Below are positions 1 through 8,190 of a stretch of DNA of 8,190 bases, piece by piece. How positions within the stretch are numbered: position 1 is the first letter of the stretch; each line of letters begins with the position of its first letter. Both the position numbers and the translations under genes were made by a program. The DNA is from an archaeon (GTDB lineage: Archaea > Asgardarchaeota > Thorarchaeia > Thorarchaeales > Thorarchaeaceae): the NCBI GenBank assembly GCA_024275415.1, contig JAJRZD010000123.1, positions 1 to 8,190 on the forward strand, written 5' to 3'. The notes under the pieces were generated by a model. It was not told the DNA's origin, ran no database searches, and saw only the letters and a list, made by a program, of their open reading frames with translations.

Positions 1-141
1 CGTAAAGGATCTATCATTGACTACTATATGTCCACATGATGCAATGGGACCGCATCGATATAGGGTAGTCATCATTGCGGGTACAAATGAGCCAAGAACC
101 CGCATATTTCAAGCATCAGTTGAATGGTGAATGACCAATGC
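1..141. repeat. Terminal direct repeat, copy 1 (identical to 8050-8190); closes the window into an 8,049-bp loop
   Basis: Base-by-base comparison: cgtaaaggatctatcattgac...gaatggtgaatgaccaatgc occurs at 1-141 and 8050-8190 with no mismatch. Confidence 0.98.
126..130 (+). promoter_or_regulatory. Shine-Dalgarno-like GGTGA for gene 1 (second copy at 8175-8179)
   Basis: GGTGA, a typical archaeal SD core, lies 7 nt upstream of the ATG at 138. Confidence 0.6.
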
Positions 142-1304
142 CCGAAGGACTTGCTGTACTAAAATGGGATGATGAACTCGGTCCGGTGGTCACCGCAAAG
201 ACCCCCAAGGGACTGAAACTCGGTCTTGACCCGACGACCTCAATGCGTGTTTATGGCATTGCAACGCTGGGCGAAACAGAAGAGGCACAAAGACCCGGAT
301 TTTCCTCTCTACCATTTCCCGACTTCAAGCTGGCTGTGTATTATGGTGGTTTGAACATGCACCTGAAGGGGCTGCCTTCTATGGTATTCCTCGTGCTGGG
401 GACTGACGAGGATCCTGACGCTTACAAGGATGCATTGCCTGAGATTGCCACTCAGATATTTCTGAACGCAGAAGGCAACGCCTATACGGCACTTGTACCC
501 AAGCTGTACAAACAGATATCCCGGTACACTCACATGACACCCGAACAGCGTCAGGCGTCTGTCGTCAATGACCCAGTGCGTCGTGCGATTCTGCAATCAT
601 TGATGAAACGTGGTTCTATCCTTTCGACCGACCTCGAGCAGCTTATTTTCGAAGAAGTAGGTAAGAAAATCGATGTGGAGATGGTGCTTCGTCCTCTCGT
701 AAAGATGGGAATCATTACGACTGGGTGGGTGGAGGGTCTCTCTTCTGAGGTAGTACATCTCACCCGTGCAATCCTCATCCAGAGAACTATTCCCGCTGAT
801 ACAGTGAAACAGCTCCGTTCTGGATATGCATCTACAGATGTTGCTAAGCAATACATTTCTAGCACGAAACGCTATCACAAAGAGTATATCGCACGGCTCA
901 GGATGAACCTCCATGAAACAGTCTGGCATGAAGCCGAAGAATTGGCAAGGATCATCCTTGACTTTGATTCTTATGACATTATTCAGCTCTTACGAAAAGG
1001 GCCTCAGATTCAGTCAAGTATTCCAGCTCTTCTCGACTTGAAAGAGTCCGTTGTGAAGAAAAAGATTCGTGAACTGGAAAAGAGCAATATCACTATCACA
1101 ATTGCGGATGACGAAGGCATCAAGCATGTATTCCTAAAATGCAACCCAGAGGTTCTCACCGTTTACCCTGAATGGCTTGTCGAGCGAACAGTGGATCTCT
1201 ACAATGAAGAAGATATCCAGTCCCGACAGGCAGTCCACTATCTTGAGCAATTGAAGATCAACCACCCGAGCAACGTTTCTGCAAAGTCAAAGGAGGCGCT
1301 CTAA
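138..1304 (+). CDS. Cytoplasmic protein with putative N-terminal longin/uDENN-like domain and two winged-helix-like domains (Asgard-type hypothetical protein)
   Basis: 388-aa ORF with SD and no TM segment. The N-terminal beta-strand plus WDDELGP (aa 10-16, nt 165-185) resembles the [FW]DxxxGP start of longin/uDENN domains. aa ~145-210 (DPVRRAILQSLMKRG...LRPLVKMGII) and aa ~275-335 (DSYDIIQLLRKGP...VVKKKIRELEKSNI) follow the wHTH pattern. Domain calls are by eye. The ORF is certain; the product is moderately certain. Confidence 0.75.
   Translation: MPEGLAVLKWDDELGPVVTAKTPKGLKLGLDPTTSMRVYGIATLGETEEAQRPGFSSLPFPDFKLAVYYGGLNMHLKGLPSMVFLVLGTDEDPDAYKDALPEIATQIFLNAEGNAYTALVPKLYKQISRYTHMTPEQRQASVVNDPVRRAILQSLMKRGSILSTDLEQLIFEEVGKKIDVEMVLRPLVKMGIITTGWVEGLSSEVVHLTRAILIQRTIPADTVKQLRSGYASTDVAKQYISSTKRYHKEYIARLRMNLHETVWHEAEELARIILDFDSYDIIQLLRKGPQIQSSIPALLDLKESVVKKKIRELEKSNITITIADDEGIKHVFLKCNPEVLTVYPEWLVERTVDLYNEEDIQSRQAVHYLEQLKINHPSNVSAKSKEAL
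1291..1296 (+). promoter_or_regulatory. Shine-Dalgarno AGGAGG for gene 2, embedded in the 3' end of gene 1; stop and start abut (TAAATG)
   Basis: aggagg at 1291-1296, TAA at 1302-1304, ATG at 1305-1307. This indicates translational coupling in an operon. Confidence 0.75.
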
Positions 1305-4300
1305 ATGAATACACAACAACGTCTGATTCTACTCATCGGTTTCTCTGTCCTATTCATGCTCCCCATGCTGACAGGGACACCTACCTCTCAATCAATCACT
1401 CCGAAGGTAAATCCTACAATGAGCATCGCTAATGTGGATGAAACCACCCCGTGGTGGAATGCTACGTATCACTATCGAATCCATGTCAATATCACGGATA
1501 CGAATTCTACTCCTCGGGTAGATGTGCCAATGTCCATGTGGTTCTCCTTCGATAACAACACCTGTTACAAGAACTCGATTCGGGTGACAGATGCCAATGG
1601 ACATGAAGTCCCATCACAAGTCTACAATACGACTTCTTGGGAGGATCCTGATTATTTCTCCGGTGCTACAGTATTCTGGTATGCTAACGTTTCAGCAGAT
1701 AGCACCGCCACATATTGGATTTATTTCTCAGAACTCAAATCGATAGAGATTCCCAACTATGAACCCGTCGTCTGGTTTGCACGAACCACTGGAACTCTTA
1801 CCGGTAAGTTCAGTCCGAACTTCTGGAGCTTCAGAGGCGATTGGTACAATGTCACCATGTTGAGTGCTTCTGGAGGCAAGATCACAAATGGTGCACACAA
1901 GATGGCTGATGGCTCATGGAATTGGGATTGGGGCACGAATCGAGGAAGCATGCATTGGAACCCAGACGGTCTGGGTGGTCAGACGACGAACAATCTCAAC
2001 CCCATAGCAGGAACCACTTTTGTGAACGAGGAAGGGCCTCTGTTCATCAATTATACCACTCAGCTGCCATTTGGCTCCTATGCCAAGATGAACGTCACTT
2101 ATACCTTCTACAGGTGGGGCTGGATAACCAGAACCTATATTCTCTATAGTGGGTCTACCAGCGGCAGTGGACGAACTGATGAGTGGGTGTTCTATCCATA
2201 TATCACAACTGGCGCAATAGAAGTGGCCGAGGATTTGACTCAGACCTCATACTCTAACTGGGTCGGATCATCAAACAAAGGGAAGCCTGCTGGCTTTGGC
2301 TGGTGGAATCCTAATGGTATCTCCCACGGCACTGTCAGGATCACACACGACAGCTGGAATACTGACCCAGCGTACCCGAATAACTATGACAACTACTATT
2401 ATCGTTGGTGGGATTATAGCTCCTACGAGTTCTGGGACACTGTGATTCCTACGATCTACGCACAGCCTGGGACTGTGCTTGAGGAACGGGTCGCCTTTGC
2501 TGCTTGGAACGGCAGTGAGGGTGCGGATGGGTATATGCGGGTCTTCAATGCCACCTCACGATACCTACCGCTCCTTAAAGAGAAGGGCGAAGTGTCCTCT
2601 TATTCTTTCAAAATCAATGTGAAGGACTTGGGCGGTTCGAATATCGAGGGTGTCAATGTGACCCTTTTTGATCAGAACACCGGCGAAAGGCTGATCAAAG
2701 CCTCTGGTGGTGTGTACACGGCACTTACCGACTCAAATGGCAATGTCACTTTTATTGGACTGTTCAACCAGACCTACAGGATTGACGCATGGATTGATAG
2801 TTCCACTTGGTTACAGCCTCAATTGGGTTCCACGGGCATGAACGTCACTTGGAGTGGCACTCGTGTTGCAGATGGCCCATTCACTCCTGTAGGCATTGTT
2901 CTTGACCTGGCGTCAATCAATATACACCTTAGTGACCTCATGGGAGACAGTCTTGCATCTGTCGGGGCTCAGACGATTCAAGTCCGAGTCTACAATGCCT
3001 CTGACCCAAATCGAGCTAATTGGCGGTATCTTGATTATGAGGCGACAGACAGCTCTGGAGACCTTACGTTCTTCCGACTACCAAAATGTGACTGGGTGTT
3101 CAACTTTACCTATTCAAATACGGACACAGGGCATATCTACACAGAAGCTGACCTCGGGAATTATATCTCATATTCAATACCTGCTACGGACATCACTGGT
3201 GACCTGTCCCGACCGAACTGGCAATTGCCATTGATCACGCTAGACTTCAATGTCAAGGCGTATGATGGTGCGAATGTGGAAACCGCTTATGTCCGTCTAT
3301 CAAAGCGAGGAACAGGGGATCCCATTGCGACAGGTGTGACTGATTACTACAATGTCACTCGTTTCACCGATGCTAATGGCAACGTCACTTTCTACAGAAT
3401 CCTGAATGGCACTTGGAACATCTATCTCTATCGCAATGATGATTTTGGTCAGACTGCATTTAACGACACAGAATCCGTTACGAATGTCCAAGGATATGAG
3501 CAACACGATCTAGTGATTCCGCTTACGTGGCTACGAGTTCTAGTTCAGGATGACAGCGGCTATCGTGTGCCAAGTGCAAAGGTCGATGTCAAGGTCAATG
3601 GACAACCACTGGTGACAGCCTACACAGACTCGTCGGGTTGGTACAACTTCACATGGATCATGGCAAATGATTCATCCATCCCAGTGGCATATACTGTGGA
3701 TGTAACCAAGCAAACCAGCTCAAGTACAAACGTTGTAGTGTATGCATCTTTCGACTATCTATATCACAATACGATAACAATTACCGGGCTTGCATACGGC
3801 TCGTTATATACCGAATTGAATGCCACAACATCCACATATTCATGGAAATATGGTGACAATAGAACTTTCATTATAGGATGGTACAATCGCACTGGATCTG
3901 ATGATGCGTCTGCTGTTGACACTCCTCTCACGAATTACAATCTGGGGCGGATGAATTTTAGCATCTACTGGCAGAATCAACTGGTAGGCATCGGATGGTG
4001 GAACAGCACATCACCTTCCTACATCGCACACAGTGCATCAGATGGCATTTACTTTACGCTCATCATTGATACAATCCATTTCAAGATGAACGCAAGTGGC
4101 TATCCCTATCTCATAAAGATCAACGCCTCAGCACCGGGGTACTCGACAACCGATATCTACACTATCACGGTTGTCATCACTCCTGCATCCACAGTCAGAA
4201 ATGGAGTGACATCAGATGTTCAGTACTGGAGTGATGGTTTCACCTTGTTTTACTCATTGACAACATCTCCAGAAGGCAGAAACACATTCAACCTGACAGC

Positions 4301-7300
4301 TCTTGACTACTTCAATTACACAGTCTATGACGGCTCGAGCGCTATCTCATCTGGTACCCTATCAGACATAGGTGGTGGGATTTATAGATTCACAGATGCT
4401 ATACTGAATGCATCCGATGCAGGTGACTACAGCGTATTGATATGGTTGCACAAGTTCAATTATCAGAATCATTCCTTTACTGTATCACTGACCATCAATG
4501 CAGTTCCCACATCGCTTTCATGGTCGAGCCCTCCCGGTGATTACACCTGGGGTTCTGGGAGTGAGATTACTACGCTCCTCTTCTATGACAATTGGCATAA
4601 CACTTCAATTCTCACCGCAGACTCCATTGTTCTGCAGTGGATCAATGTAGATACTGGAGAGATTGTCCTTACTGATACATCTACTCTTTTGACTTACACG
4701 TATAACAGGGATATAGTCGCCAATGGGACTTGGCAAATCCACGCATATGTTTCCAAGTCGAATTTCATCGGCAGCGATGCTCTCTCGTTGGTATTTACCG
4801 TATCCCCTGTGACCACTCAGATTATTCTGACCTCCTCAAATGAGGTGACTGTGGCATGGGGCAGTGAATATGCGACGTTCGACTTCGACTACGAACATGT
4901 ATCTCCCACTTTGGCTGTTGCAGGTGGTGAAATAATTGCTATCGATTGGACTGGTGAATACAGTCTGGTGGACAATGGCGATGGCTCATACCAGTTGAGA
5001 TTGCTCCCTGTCCAAGAGGCTGCGAATTACACCTTCACATTCTATATGTGGATTGCAAACCGTACGAAGGCATCTGCCACCGTCACGGTGAACGTTCTCA
5101 TTCCTCTTGAGGTGAGGGCTGTGGCAGGTTCATCGATACAGGATCCGATAAGCGAGTACTGGACAAGGAACTTCACGCTGCAGATCAATGCGGGTGATCT
5201 TTCGAATGTATCCACTTACGTTTCTGGGGTGACCGTCACCTACACATTCGCAGCAGGTGGCATCTCAGGGGTTATGACCGAGAACATGAGTGGCCAGTAC
5301 TACTATATCGAGTTTCCTGCAAGCTCGGCTCCCGGACCAGGGATATATGAGATTAATATTGACGCAACAAGGGTTGGATGCACAGGGACGACAACCTCAA
5401 TATTTATTGAAGTGATTGCCACCCCGACTCTGGCTGCTGCTGAAACTCAGCTGCTCACTGTCTACTATGCCGATATCTTGGATTTGAATTTCACATGGAC
5501 TACTTCGATTGATGACCATGCTGGGGTTTCTGCCCCTGACAGCGTGACAATCTCGCTATGGAAAGGCATCAACCAGATCAACTCGGATATAGGTGGTGTT
5601 ATCGACTTTGGGAACGGTTCTTACACATTCCAAGTCAACACCAAGACACTGCAGATGACTGCCGACTCCCCGCTTGCTCCAACTGGCTACTACTTTGTCA
5701 TCACTATTAACAAGCTGGGCTATGGCGACCCACTGGCTGTCACGATCATCGTGCTTGTCCTCCAGACACCGACCGAGATGACTGCCGACCAGATTGATCC
5801 CGTTGTGTGGTCTGAAACCCTGACAATCAATGTTCATCTGAAAGATATTATCCACTCGGAGTACGTCTGGGAGAATGCGACTGTGACTCTGATATATGGT
5901 GGATTTGCGCAGAACTTTACTTCCCTAGGCAATGGGACTTTCACGATATCCTTCGATTCCCAGCTTGCCTTCAACTCTTCCGATACACCCCATCATGCCA
6001 CCATCGAGTATACACTACCAAACTACATCGACGGCTCGATAGGTGTTGATGTGCTTGTGAACCCAGTTGCTGCGAGTATTGTCCTCGACACGCTTGAAAA
6101 TGCATATGACTGGAACTCCACCTTTGCATTAACCCTCGCAATTGTTCTGGACTCCAACTCACTGATTCGGGTTAATGTCACCAGAGTGTACTTTTATTGG
6201 ACTGGCTACCCCACAATCCAAGGCACACTCGTTTATGATTCGACATGGAGCGATTATCGAGGGACAGTTGATACAGGAAAAGTGCCAGCAGGGGCACGGA
6301 CGCTAAACATTGTCGCGGAGAGGCAGAACTACAGCATCCCAGTTGTACAAATCAACCTGACCGTTCGCGAGTTGGACACCGAACTCACACCCGATACGGA
6401 AGCCCTCTTCGTCATCTTTGGCGTGGATCAGAGCGCTGAGGTTCGTTTCACCTATGTAAGTGGTTCGAATGTGCTTGAAGGAGCCACGATGACTTTCCTT
6501 TGGGCTGGATTGGAGCGTAGCGCGTCATGGGCGGACGGGGAATACGTTTTCCAGTTCAATCCTTCTGGAGATTCTTCTTTGGTCGTCCCTGGCACTTATG
6601 TCTTGAACTTCTCGGCGTCGTTGATGAATTACACCTCACAGACCGCAAGTGTGGTTCTCCATCTCTCGGCTGCGACTGATATAGTCGGCGGTCCATTCAG
6701 AGTGGAAGAAGGACAGAGTTTCATCCTGATCTTTGCATATTGGGATATGGTGAATGACCGTCCAGTGGGAGCCACAGCATCAGTCCAGTACATCATTGGT
6801 GGCGTGACTCATGATGTGGACGCTTCTCAGTTCAACGGCACTCATTATCTAATCCCGCTGACTGCCTCCGAAGTAGGTGAGATACGAACCGAGCCCTATC
6901 TGATACAGATTCTTGCTAGTGCTCCTGGATATCAGAACTGGACACAGTCTGTATCAAAGACTGTCCAAGTCTATATTCTCAGCCCAACAGTCAACGTGTT
7001 GGGGCTGTTCACCGTTCAGCGCGATATACTGTTCCTTGTGATTGCGATGACAGGGTTCTTTGCGTTCATTGCTGGTGCCGGAATCGGCATTCAGCGGTGG
7101 CGAATCCCCCATGTTATCAAGCAGATCAACAAGGCAATCAAGCAAATGGAGGCCGGGAAGGTCGCTAGCGTCGAGGGAATAAAGAGCATGGGACAGGTCA
7201 TCGCCGAGATACTCGCTCCAGGGTTAGCTGAGCTGGACATCGAAGCCCCAATCATCGACTCGATTTCTGAAGGGATGTTCTTAGGAGCTGAAGAGCCTGA

Positions 7301-7883
7301 GGACATCCTGAGCGAGCTTGACACTCTGGACGACCTGATTGAGGAACCCGATGTGGTTCCCGAGGACAGTACGGTTGATTTCGAGGCTGAACTTGAGGCA
7401 GAGCTTGACACGATTGTTGAAGAAACACCAGTCGAAGCCGAGCCAGAAGTTCCCGCGGTCAAAGAACCTGAAGCAGAATCTGAGGACATGGAAACAGATA
7501 TCGAGAAATCCGATATTGACGAGGACAGTGAGCCAGAGTCTGAGGAGGTCGAATCTGTTCCAGAACCCGATGAATCTCCAGAGGTTGAAGAACCCTCAGA
7601 AGACGTTGTTAAGGAGTCCATCGAGGAGTCTGATGAATCCGATGAGGTGGATGCGCCTCTTGACAATGAGGTTTCTGAACCTGCCGAGATTTCCGAGCCC
7701 GAATCTGACTCGACTACTGATCAAGAGGTTGAACCGACTGAATCAGAGGAATCTCTACCAGATGCGGATGATACAGTCGATGAACAAGAGCAGGAGGATG
7801 TAGAGGACATTCTGGATCTGGAAGACGAGGATGAATTATCCGATAGCCTTCCTGATGACGATTGGGATGAGGCCATCGAATAG
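1305..7883 (+). CDS. Giant single-pass cell-surface glycoprotein (adhesin or S-layer-associated type) with DUF2341-like domain, CarboxypepD_reg-like and Ig-like repeats, and an acidic cytoplasmic tail
   Basis: 2192-aa ORF. The N-terminal hydrophobic signal is LILLIGFSVLFMLPML. The ectodomain is T/S/Y/N/V-rich and beta-like, with ~55 N-x-S/T sequons by manual count. The TM helix is aa 1908-1929 (ILFLVIAMTGFFAFIAGAGIGI, nt 7026-7091), followed by basic QRWR...K residues (positive-inside rule) and a D/E/P/S-rich tail. Confidence 0.9.
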   Translation: MNTQQRLILLIGFSVLFMLPMLTGTPTSQSITPKVNPTMSIANVDETTPWWNATYHYRIHVNITDTNSTPRVDVPMSMWFSFDNNTCYKNSIRVTDANGHEVPSQVYNTTSWEDPDYFSGATVFWYANVSADSTATYWIYFSELKSIEIPNYEPVVWFARTTGTLTGKFSPNFWSFRGDWYNVTMLSASGGKITNGAHKMADGSWNWDWGTNRGSMHWNPDGLGGQTTNNLNPIAGTTFVNEEGPLFINYTTQLPFGSYAKMNVTYTFYRWGWITRTYILYSGSTSGSGRTDEWVFYPYITTGAIEVAEDLTQTSYSNWVGSSNKGKPAGFGWWNPNGISHGTVRITHDSWNTDPAYPNNYDNYYYRWWDYSSYEFWDTVIPTIYAQPGTVLEERVAFAAWNGSEGADGYMRVFNATSRYLPLLKEKGEVSSYSFKINVKDLGGSNIEGVNVTLFDQNTGERLIKASGGVYTALTDSNGNVTFIGLFNQTYRIDAWIDSSTWLQPQLGSTGMNVTWSGTRVADGPFTPVGIVLDLASINIHLSDLMGDSLASVGAQTIQVRVYNASDPNRANWRYLDYEATDSSGDLTFFRLPKCDWVFNFTYSNTDTGHIYTEADLGNYISYSIPATDITGDLSRPNWQLPLITLDFNVKAYDGANVETAYVRLSKRGTGDPIATGVTDYYNVTRFTDANGNVTFYRILNGTWNIYLYRNDDFGQTAFNDTESVTNVQGYEQHDLVIPLTWLRVLVQDDSGYRVPSAKVDVKVNGQPLVTAYTDSSGWYNFTWIMANDSSIPVAYTVDVTKQTSSSTNVVVYASFDYLYHNTITITGLAYGSLYTELNATTSTYSWKYGDNRTFIIGWYNRTGSDDASAVDTPLTNYNLGRMNFSIYWQNQLVGIGWWNSTSPSYIAHSASDGIYFTLIIDTIHFKMNASGYPYLIKINASAPGYSTTDIYTITVVITPASTVRNGVTSDVQYWSDGFTLFYSLTTSPEGRNTFNLTALDYFNYTVYDGSSAISSGTLSDIGGGIYRFTDAILNASDAGDYSVLIWLHKFNYQNHSFTVSLTINAVPTSLSWSSPPGDYTWGSGSEITTLLFYDNWHNTSILTADSIVLQWINVDTGEIVLTDTSTLLTYTYNRDIVANGTWQIHAYVSKSNFIGSDALSLVFTVSPVTTQIILTSSNEVTVAWGSEYATFDFDYEHVSPTLAVAGGEIIAIDWTGEYSLVDNGDGSYQLRLLPVQEAANYTFTFYMWIANRTKASATVTVNVLIPLEVRAVAGSSIQDPISEYWTRNFTLQINAGDLSNVSTYVSGVTVTYTFAAGGISGVMTENMSGQYYYIEFPASSAPGPGIYEINIDATRVGCTGTTTSIFIEVIATPTLAAAETQLLTVYYADILDLNFTWTTSIDDHAGVSAPDSVTISLWKGINQINSDIGGVIDFGNGSYTFQVNTKTLQMTADSPLAPTGYYFVITINKLGYGDPLAVTIIVLVLQTPTEMTADQIDPVVWSETLTINVHLKDIIHSEYVWENATVTLIYGGFAQNFTSLGNGTFTISFDSQLAFNSSDTPHHATIEYTLPNYIDGSIGVDVLVNPVAASIVLDTLENAYDWNSTFALTLAIVLDSNSLIRVNVTRVYFYWTGYPTIQGTLVYDSTWSDYRGTVDTGKVPAGARTLNIVAERQNYSIPVVQINLTVRELDTELTPDTEALFVIFGVDQSAEVRFTYVSGSNVLEGATMTFLWAGLERSASWADGEYVFQFNPSGDSSLVVPGTYVLNFSASLMNYTSQTASVVLHLSAATDIVGGPFRVEEGQSFILIFAYWDMVNDRPVGATASVQYIIGGVTHDVDASQFNGTHYLIPLTASEVGEIRTEPYLIQILASAPGYQNWTQSVSKTVQVYILSPTVNVLGLFTVQRDILFLVIAMTGFFAFIAGAGIGIQRWRIPHVIKQINKAIKQMEAGKVASVEGIKSMGQVIAEILAPGLAELDIEAPIIDSISEGMFLGAEEPEDILSELDTLDDLIEEPDVVPEDSTVDFEAELEAELDTIVEETPVEAEPEVPAVKEPEAESEDMETDIEKSDIDEDSEPESEEVESVPEPDESPEVEEPSEDVVKESIEESDESDEVDAPLDNEVSEPAEISEPESDSTTDQEVEPTESEESLPDADDTVDEQEQEDVEDILDLEDEDELSDSLPDDDWDEAIE
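1452..1730 (+). other. DUF2341-like domain within gene 2 (aa ~50-142)
   Basis: The pattern WWNATYHYRIHVNIT...NSIRVTDANGHEVPSQ...ATVFWYANVSADSTATYWIYF matches the W-x-Y-R-x-x-I...(D/S)IR...Y-x-YY(G) layout I recognise for DUF2341 in archaeal and bacterial surface proteins. No HMM was run. Confidence 0.65.
2601..3780 (+). repeat. Four carboxypeptidase-regulatory-like (transthyretin-like beta-sandwich) protein repeats in gene 2
   Basis: A recurrent [FLI]x[VL]xDxxG...TDxxGx[VLY]xF motif: TDSNGNVTF (2727), TDSSGDLTF (3045), TDANGNVTF (3366), TDSSGWYNF (3624). Spacings are 106, 107 and 86 aa. Confidence 0.75.
3800..6990 (+). repeat. About ten divergent Ig-like stalk repeats of ~100-125 aa in gene 2
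   Basis: Module boundaries recur at nt ~4182, 4506, 4806, 5103, 5424, 5769, 6063, 6369, 6669 and 6984 (VVITPAST, TINAVPTS, FTVSPVTT, NVLIPLEV, EVIATPT, LVLQTPT, VLVNPVA, LTVRELDT, LHLSAATD, VYILSPT). Internal beta-hairpins are DIGGGIY, DNGDGSY, ENMSGQY, DFGNGSY, SLGNGTF and WADGEY. The similarity is at protein level only. Confidence 0.75.
7092..7880 (+). other. 263-aa predicted cytoplasmic region of gene 2: juxtamembrane amphipathic helix, then an acidic low-complexity (disordered) tail from ~7290
   Basis: Follows the TM helix. RIPHVIKQINKAIKQMEAGK is helical and basic. From EEPEDIL onward the sequence is dominated by E, D, S, P and V, with no N-x-S/T sequon. Confidence 0.8.
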
Positions 7884-7916
7884 GATGTGTTGTCACAGGT
7901 ATCACAGAAAACCCAA

Positions 7917-7948
7917 GAAATGAGCCCAAAAAGGCTCATTTCCTTTTT
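7917..7948 (+). terminator. Hairpin plus T-tract, probable transcription terminator of the operon
   Basis: Perfect 10-bp stem gaaatgagcc (7917-7926) / ggctcatttc (7933-7942) with loop caaaaa, followed by ctttttctatttct. It begins 33 nt after the gene 2 stop. Confidence 0.75.
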
Positions 7949-8050
7949 CTATTTCTTAATTAATGTAATTCATACATGCTACCTTTCTCATTTTTAAAAA
8001 AGAGGTCACACAGGATTTTCTTATTAGTAACTGGATGTTCTATTTATTCC
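7941..8050. promoter_or_regulatory. AT-rich intergenic patch, likely containing the operon promoter
   Basis: 30 G+C in 110 nt (27%), visibly lower than the coding sequence. It lies between the terminator and the gene 1 leader once the ends are joined. TATA-like candidates are tttttaaaaa (7991-8000) and tatttatt (8041-8048), but neither has a convincing BRE. Confidence 0.4.
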
Positions 8051-8190
8051 GTAAAGGATCTATCATTGACTACTATATGTCCACATGATGCAATGGGACC
8101 GCATCGATATAGGGTAGTCATCATTGCGGGTACAAATGAGCCAAGAACCCGCATATTTCAAGCATCAGTTGAATGGTGAATGACCAATGC
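8050..8190. repeat. Terminal direct repeat, copy 2 (identical to 1-141); its last 4 nt (atgc, 8187-8190) are the start of gene 1 again
   Basis: Exact match to positions 1-141. The window ends 4 nt into the gene 1 reading frame. Confidence 0.98.

Follow-up and report, generated by a model that had tools for sequence, protein, structure and literature searches.

The 8,190-nt contig JAJRZD010000123.1, analysed here over its whole length and hereafter called the window, begins and ends with the same 141 nt and, once these ends are joined, gives an 8,049-bp ring made of one two-gene operon. Does this Thorarchaeota genome contain a circular molecule, or was the circle made during assembly? The window is the whole of contig C109 in a metagenome-assembled genome (MAG), here G000, of 3.53 Mb in 127 contigs, 92.9% complete and with 4.5% contamination. 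Here, we conclude, with a probability of roughly 85%, that the 'circle' is an assembly artefact and that the window is a single-copy chromosomal segment, the first of two tandem paralogous operons (gene 1 and gene 2, followed by gene 1' and gene 2'). Direct support comes from the adjacencies in the assembly graph, the downstream paralogue, a gradient of identity between the two copies, synteny, an intact tandem pair in a relative (G042) and the sufficiency of a simulated graph; from these, we infer a single pass through the loop. A circular DNA molecule is, in our assessment, not a real feature of this genome; the locus consists of ordinary chromosomal DNA and is moderately interesting for its evolution. 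The features on which the argument turns, in window coordinates, are the following.

1..141, + strand: start copy of the terminal 141-mer, with most of the 5' leader and ATGC of gene 1; a branching vertex in the k = 141 graph
1..379, + strand: probable full exact repeat of both tandem operons, with the leader and, for gene 1 as for gene 1', the initial 81 codons
138..1304, + strand: gene 1, 388 aa, cytoplasmic, conserved throughout Thorarchaeota; predicted to have a longin-like N-domain followed by winged helices
1305..7883, + strand: gene 2 ('type B'), 2,192 aa; type-I surface glycoprotein carrying a signal peptide and Ig-like/CarboxypepD_reg domains
7958..8049, + strand: intergenic region b (IGR-b), the diverged second copy of the operon promoter region, homologous to IGR-a, which precedes the 141-mer on contig C68
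8050..8190, + strand: end copy of the terminal 141-mer; in the proposed chromosome, it supplies the leader and start codon of gene 1', the downstream paralogue on contig C8

In the proposed arrangement, the chromosome would run from a thiolase-like gene (contig C125) through gene X (C68) into promoter-a, the leader, gene 1 and gene 2 (C109), and from there through promoter-b, a second leader, gene 1', gene 2' and an Arf-like GTPase into the remainder of C8. Through gene conversion, gene 1 and gene 1' would have become identical in their leader and first ~80 codons, over at least 141 nt and probably over 379 nt. In a de Bruijn graph with k = 141, the end of the first operon would enter the same k-mers as its own beginning, and the shared start would in this way turn the operon into a self-looped unitig. 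The exit to gene 1', located at the first difference (window position 380), would stay unconnected if about 20 junction k-mers were missing or pruned, and the assembler would put out a unitig beginning and ending on one 141-mer. The initial annotation had insisted that a self-loop in the graph needs a cause, and this cause is most likely the start sequence common to two operons; what had been kept there as a fall-back, namely a repeat flanking a single-copy locus and giving rise to an artefact, is supported by the links to C68 and C8, by the tandem pair of G042 and by the simulation at k = 141.

Connections of the loop to the chromosome

Direct comparison of both window ends confirmed that positions 1-141 are identical to 8050-8190, as first annotated, and that 141 nt is the longest exact terminal overlap. 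In G000, 55 different 141-mers are common to contig ends and every suffix-prefix overlap tested measures exactly 141 nt; the overlap length is therefore the k of the assembler and a plain mark of adjacency, in agreement with the earlier suggestion that 141 is an assembler constant. C109 is the only contig of G000 that overlaps itself. The 55 terminal 141-mers also supply scaffolding links, for example C125-C68-C109-(gap)-C8. At most branch vertices of this MAG only two of three or more contigs were binned, the short or strain-variant branches being left unbinned.

The loop, which had been described as closed, turned out to be open on its upstream side. In fact, window positions 1-141 are also identical to the reverse complement of C68:1-141, so that the closing 141-mer terminates a second contig and provides an entry edge from the chromosome. 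At its other end, C68 has a 141-mer in common with the start of C125, on which carboxyltransferase-like, biotinyl-carrier-like and thiolase-like genes (C125:3627-353) are encoded; these are the genes that precede the operon in relatives. Furthermore, the similarity between the window and C68 goes beyond the 141-mer: window 7958-8190 aligns to C68:232-1 with 91% identity over 234 nt, a figure that includes the 141 identical nt, the identity outside them being ~77%.

On the downstream side, the connection leads to C8. The end of this contig lies inside gene 1', which it enters at residue 42 and whose product has 72% amino acid identity to that of gene 1, and is followed by gene 2', encoding a protein of 2,419 aa with ~33% amino acid identity to the gene 2 product. 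The genes of C8 beyond gene 2' are the conserved downstream neighbours of the operon in six relatives (G003, G006, G007, G013, G014 and G017). Read on its reverse complement, C8 is 100% identical to window 259-379 over its nt 1-121, the first mismatch being at window position 380, and from there the identity falls, in successive steps of 100 nt, to 97, 87, 75, 71, 62 and 59%. Since 121 identical nt stand at the very end of the contig and are followed by this decay, the exact repeat probably spans window 1-379, and the stretch corresponding to window 142-258 would be identical in the unassembled part of gene 1'. C8 is a dead end in the graph, as its gene 1' end has no 141-mer in common with any binned contig. 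The entry and exit edges that the initial annotation had proposed to look for thus fared differently: the entry is present as the 141-mer of C68, while the exit to C8 is deduced from the 121 identical nt.

A repeat of exactly 141 nt with two exits was also considered and rejected. It would need a difference in gene 1' at position 142, the second base of the Pro-2 codon; ATGCC is found in 11 of the 11 relatives aligned, and the 121 identical nt of C8 extend further than such a repeat would allow.

The connection to C68 and C125 bears directly on the first of the three options originally put forward, an autonomous gene-cassette episome, replicated by the host and sharing merely 141 nt with the chromosome. 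Its appeal lies in the overlapping ends and in a joined unit in which no gene is truncated. The window contains only two real open reading frames (ORFs), abutting and on the + strand, with all remaining ORFs of at least 60 aa inside or antisense to them, and gene 1 and gene 2 occupy 96.2% of the joined 8,049-bp unit, as expected from the earlier description of one two-gene operon with 96% coding sequence. Pfam and NCBIfam searches of both window proteins gave no match to replication, integration, transposition or capsid families, and the Pfam matches were limited to a weak winged helix-turn-helix (wHTH) and to Ig-like/CarboxypepD_reg domains; the reported absence of replication, mobility and capsid genes is therefore confirmed, and for an episome the lack of a replication gene is a difficulty. 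The chromosomal promoter region on C68 and the 3' intergenic region of the unit are diverged paralogues, chromosomal units of G042 and G006 hold orthologues of the window genes, and the start of the 'circle' coincides with a branching graph vertex and not with an arbitrary point. In tetranucleotide composition, compared with 8-kb chunks of the host, C109 falls at the 85th percentile and the C8 paralogue at the 90th; an origin of the window as foreign DNA was rejected on account of this host-like composition. With the loop wired to C68 and C125 and orthologous units linear in relatives, the episome appears extremely improbable, and a false candidate for an 'archaeal gene-cassette episome' is removed.

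Simulation of the graph and weight of the proposed artefact

The sufficiency of the proposed arrangement was examined on a simulated linear locus, composed of the reverse complement of C68, the body of C109, IGR-b plus the leader, the stretch 142-258 taken as identical and the reverse complement of C8, from which a graph with k = 141 was built. When all the edges were kept, the graph gave four unitigs; with full k-mer coverage, a repeat of 379 nt is expected to form a separate 379-nt unitig and no self-overlapping contig. When the 20 junction 142-mers starting at positions 239-258 of the second copy were removed, the graph resolved into three unitigs: one identical to C109 (8,190 nt, with a 141-nt self-overlap), one starting from the first base of the reverse complement of C8, and the reverse complement of C68. 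The 121 nt common to C8 and the window equal the previous k of MEGAHIT (119) plus 2, a figure that would fit a contig of the k = 119 stage that was passed on without any read across the junction, and low coverage is the presumed cause of the lost junction.

Repeat-induced false 'circular' contigs are a familiar product of assembly, in which a unitig starting and ending at one repeat vertex acquires a terminal overlap of length k. The window resembles them in that its overlap equals the final k (141), its vertex is common to another contig, a genomic direct repeat exceeding k lies on either side of its unit and the simulation reproduces the contig exactly; the overlap measures exactly k because the exit branch was lost. 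Unlike in the usual cases, the repeat is here the homogenised promoter-proximal part of two operons rather than a mobile element or rRNA. A reusable check for MEGAHIT MAGs follows from this comparison: a terminal overlap of length k denotes circularity only if that k-mer is found on no other contig end.

Several points weigh against the artefact. The support comes from the graph and the sequence, and the single pass through the loop is presumed. The MAG lacks 117 nt of gene 1', those that separate the 141-mer from the start of C8, so that the exit edge is deduced and not seen. Moreover, a de Bruijn graph cannot separate a tandem from one operon plus a separate circle sharing the repeat. Finally, G042, in which the tandem is intact, belongs to another genus, and two genomes of the same genus hold one unit only at this locus.

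Another reading is a mixture of strains, in which the type-B unit would be carried by some of the co-assembled strains only, the others having C68 directly on the type-A operon, that is, gene 1' and gene 2'; the unit would still be linear and chromosomal, as a presence/absence polymorphism in the sampled population. The 4.5% contamination of the MAG and the many branch vertices with an unbinned third branch would agree with such a mixture, as would the different unit content of the species of the genus. However, given the simulation, it is superfluous for explaining the contigs, and we judge it highly unlikely.

The tandem pair in a relative and variation of the locus

A scan of 86 genomes of the family found two close copies of gene 1 only in G000 and G042, and none with more than two. 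G042, 98% complete in 10 contigs, shows without interruption the arrangement proposed for G000: on a single 1.55-Mb contig, the upstream block is followed by gene 1, a type-B giant gene, gene 1', a type-A giant gene and the downstream block. Its type-B giant gene has 56% identity to gene 2 of the window over the full length, and its type-A giant gene 42% identity to gene 2' of C8. The spacing is also very similar, with a tandem period of 8,066 nt in G042 vs. 8,049 nt in G000 and a gap between the giant gene and gene 1' of 302 nt vs. 303 nt, respectively.

A true tandem amplification, in which the C8 operon would be preceded by at least two identical 8,049-bp units in head-to-tail order, collapsed into one by the assembler, was another of the options of the initial annotation. 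The graph, with its entry from C68, its self-loop and its lost exit, fits more than one pass equally well, and a direct repeat of ~379 nt would permit unequal crossing-over. Nothing, however, demands more than one pass; in G042, the sole intact example, there is just a single unit of each type, B and A, and in no family genome searched are there more than two close copies of gene 1. The tandem that is found consists instead of two old, diverged paralogous operons, the gene 2 proteins of which are ~33% identical, and a collapsed amplification is accordingly regarded as very unlikely.

Single units between the same flanks are present in G003, G006, G007, G013, G014 and G017. Within the genus of G000, the unit content varies: the only unit of G003 is of type A and that of G006 a shortened type B, whereas G000 carries type B and, after it, type A. 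The giant gene of G006 encodes ~700 aa, which match residues 4-114 and 1584-2104 of the gene 2 product. Units thus appear to have been gained or lost over evolutionary time, plausibly through recombination between the repeats. The duplicated unit stops short of the next gene of the locus, and the window adds upstream only paralogues of gene 1' and gene 2'. This next gene, following gene 2' on C8, encodes an Arf-family GTPase of 292 aa (L030:4882-5760, - strand, corresponding to C8:47781-48659) with an N-terminal extension of ~120 aa, a Pfam Arf match at E = 6e-12 and 75-84% identity in all the relatives examined. At this locus, Thorarchaeota have, ahead of an Arf-like GTPase gene, one or two tandem units, each pairing a putative longin/winged-helix gene with a gene for a giant surface glycoprotein.

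The same variation in unit content is one of the arguments for an excised circle beside the chromosome, freed in some members of the population by homologous recombination of the ~379-nt repeats as a type-B molecule of 8,049 bp that does not replicate, after which the chromosome would keep the type-A operon only. The direct repeats are long enough for homologous recombination, and the graph does not tell an excised circle from the tandem form. Against it, a circle with no origin would be lost by dilution, and the k = 141 simulation accounts for the loop in full with no need of one. Neither a recombinase gene (Pfam, NCBIfam) nor a short att core with sharp edges was found in the window, and the homology around the identical stretch fades on both sides, with ~92 nt upstream at ~77% identity and a gradual decay downstream of position 379. 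The excision switch that the initial annotation had envisaged is thus not supported here, and the circle is considered very improbable. The search of related MAGs that had been proposed there did recover the operon in a linear context, as the tandem of G042 and as single units in the other relatives.

A small chance is left to a functional role of the homogenised repeat of ~379 nt, by which recombination would excise or duplicate the type-B unit, so that actual circles or amplified copies would account for part of the self-loop. If this were true, the cells of one population would differ in the presence or copy number of a giant surface glycoprotein, and an Asgard archaeon would possess a copy-number switch that needs no recombinase.

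Concerning the upstream flank, C68 carries gene X (L003, + strand, from 480 to past 1730; ~713 aa up to the end of the contig), encoding a signal-anchored protein with a weak match to the GH42 trimerisation domain (E = 0.0016, below the cutoff). Only in G000 does gene X separate the thiolase-like gene from the operon; the relatives examined have no counterpart at that place.

Products, signals and evolution of the two units

Gene 1 has orthologues of 61-76% identity in 45 of the 85 other genomes of the family (E<=1e-60) and a mean column identity of 76% across 29 sequences. The structure predicted for its product has a mean predicted local distance difference test score of 73.6. When this model was compared by VIA-align, residues 1-135 matched longin domains (Z 8.3, root-mean-square deviation (rmsd) 3.4-3.6, 105-120 aligned residues) and residues 255-345 an ArsR/SmtB wHTH (Z 8.9). 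GATOR1 and SEA subunits were among the top rows with large rmsd, 8fw5_B of GATOR1 reaching a Z of 8.9 but an rmsd of 12.3. Foldseek of the model against the PDB gave no match at E<=0.001, a sequence search of the PDB with gene 1 gave nothing meaningful (best E 0.22), the Pfam HTH_20 match was below its cutoff and no NCBIfam family was matched by the protein of gene 1 or of gene 2. From the model, an identity of gene 1 as an NPRL2-like protein (longin plus winged-helix) is compatible but not established. The exact gene 1 protein is not on record in the public assemblies looked up, the closest relative in a search of 5.8 billion proteins has 76% identity, with no second assembly of the species found, and a 31-nt core of the repeat had no exact match in the public metagenome contigs scanned. 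A look-up of sequencing runs for the whole window and for gene 1 alone returned none. The names given to homologues place the organism in Thorarchaeota, among the Asgard archaea.

The gene 2 product has an ectodomain of ~1,880 aa, a single C-terminal transmembrane segment (1906-1924) and an acidic tail of 268 aa, in which Asp plus Glu make up 38%. It contains 55 N-X-S/T sequons, compared with 24.5 +/- 3.8 in shuffled sequences.

The remaining signals of the window are the following.

7917..7942, + strand: terminator-like hairpin followed by a T-run, just 3' of the gene 2 stop
8013..8027, + strand: promoter-like (TATA/B-recognition-element-like) motif GGATTTTCTTATTAG, ending 22 nt before the 141-mer
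8174..8178, also 125-129, + strand: Shine-Dalgarno-like GGTGA, 8 nt before the ATG, as read from the sequence

The motif GGATTTTCTTATTAG is found in both copies of G000 and, slightly altered, ahead of gene 1 in 11 relatives. Since it ends 22 nt before the 141-mer, the 141-mer would begin at about the transcription start, and since each unit has its own promoter-like motif, both are probably expressed. In all the gene 1 orthologues compared, a leader of ~140-200 nt follows the conserved promoter-like motif; its sequence differs among genera, with a GGGAC(C)/GGACC motif in most. The leader of G000 (8050-8186 = 1-137) has a folding energy of -38.2 kcal/mol, only mildly unusual with respect to shuffled sequences (z = -2.09).

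The two genes of the unit have evolved differently. Across genomes, the giant genes are orthologous by type, with identities of 53-56% for type B and 41-62% for type A and of 31-33% between the types, so that the duplication predates the split of the two genera. The copies of gene 1, instead, are closer within a genome than across genomes, with 96.9% amino acid identity within G042 vs. ~69% to either copy of G000, a pattern that points to gene conversion and concerted evolution and of which the 100% identical 5' tract of G000 is the local expression. Concerted evolution of the regulator-like gene goes with divergence of the surface proteins, and the unit content varies among species. Tandem paralogous surface-protein genes that are partly identical through gene conversion occur in bacterial variable surface-protein families, which serve here as a lead only. 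As in those families, the 5' region is conserved and homogenised and the body strongly diverged; unlike in them, there is no recombinase, invertible promoter or array of silent cassettes.

In G042, the two copies of gene 1 have 91% nucleotide identity over the whole gene (G042:C1, offset 1214000, 10423-11604 vs. 18489-19670), and near the 3' ends of the giant genes, which otherwise differ strongly, a patch of 265 nt is 97% identical (17413-17677 vs. 26016-26280, same contig and offset). These patches look like gene conversion at both ends of the unit.

In other fragmented Thorarchaeota MAGs, contigs or open frames end within the first 64-171 codons of gene 1, at the following places.

G024:C37:3-194: gene 1 break
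G043:C343:9-359: gene 1 break
G100:C77:4111-4623: gene 1 break
G046:C221:6562-7071: gene 1 break

A homogenised 5' repeat of gene 1 may break these assemblies as well.

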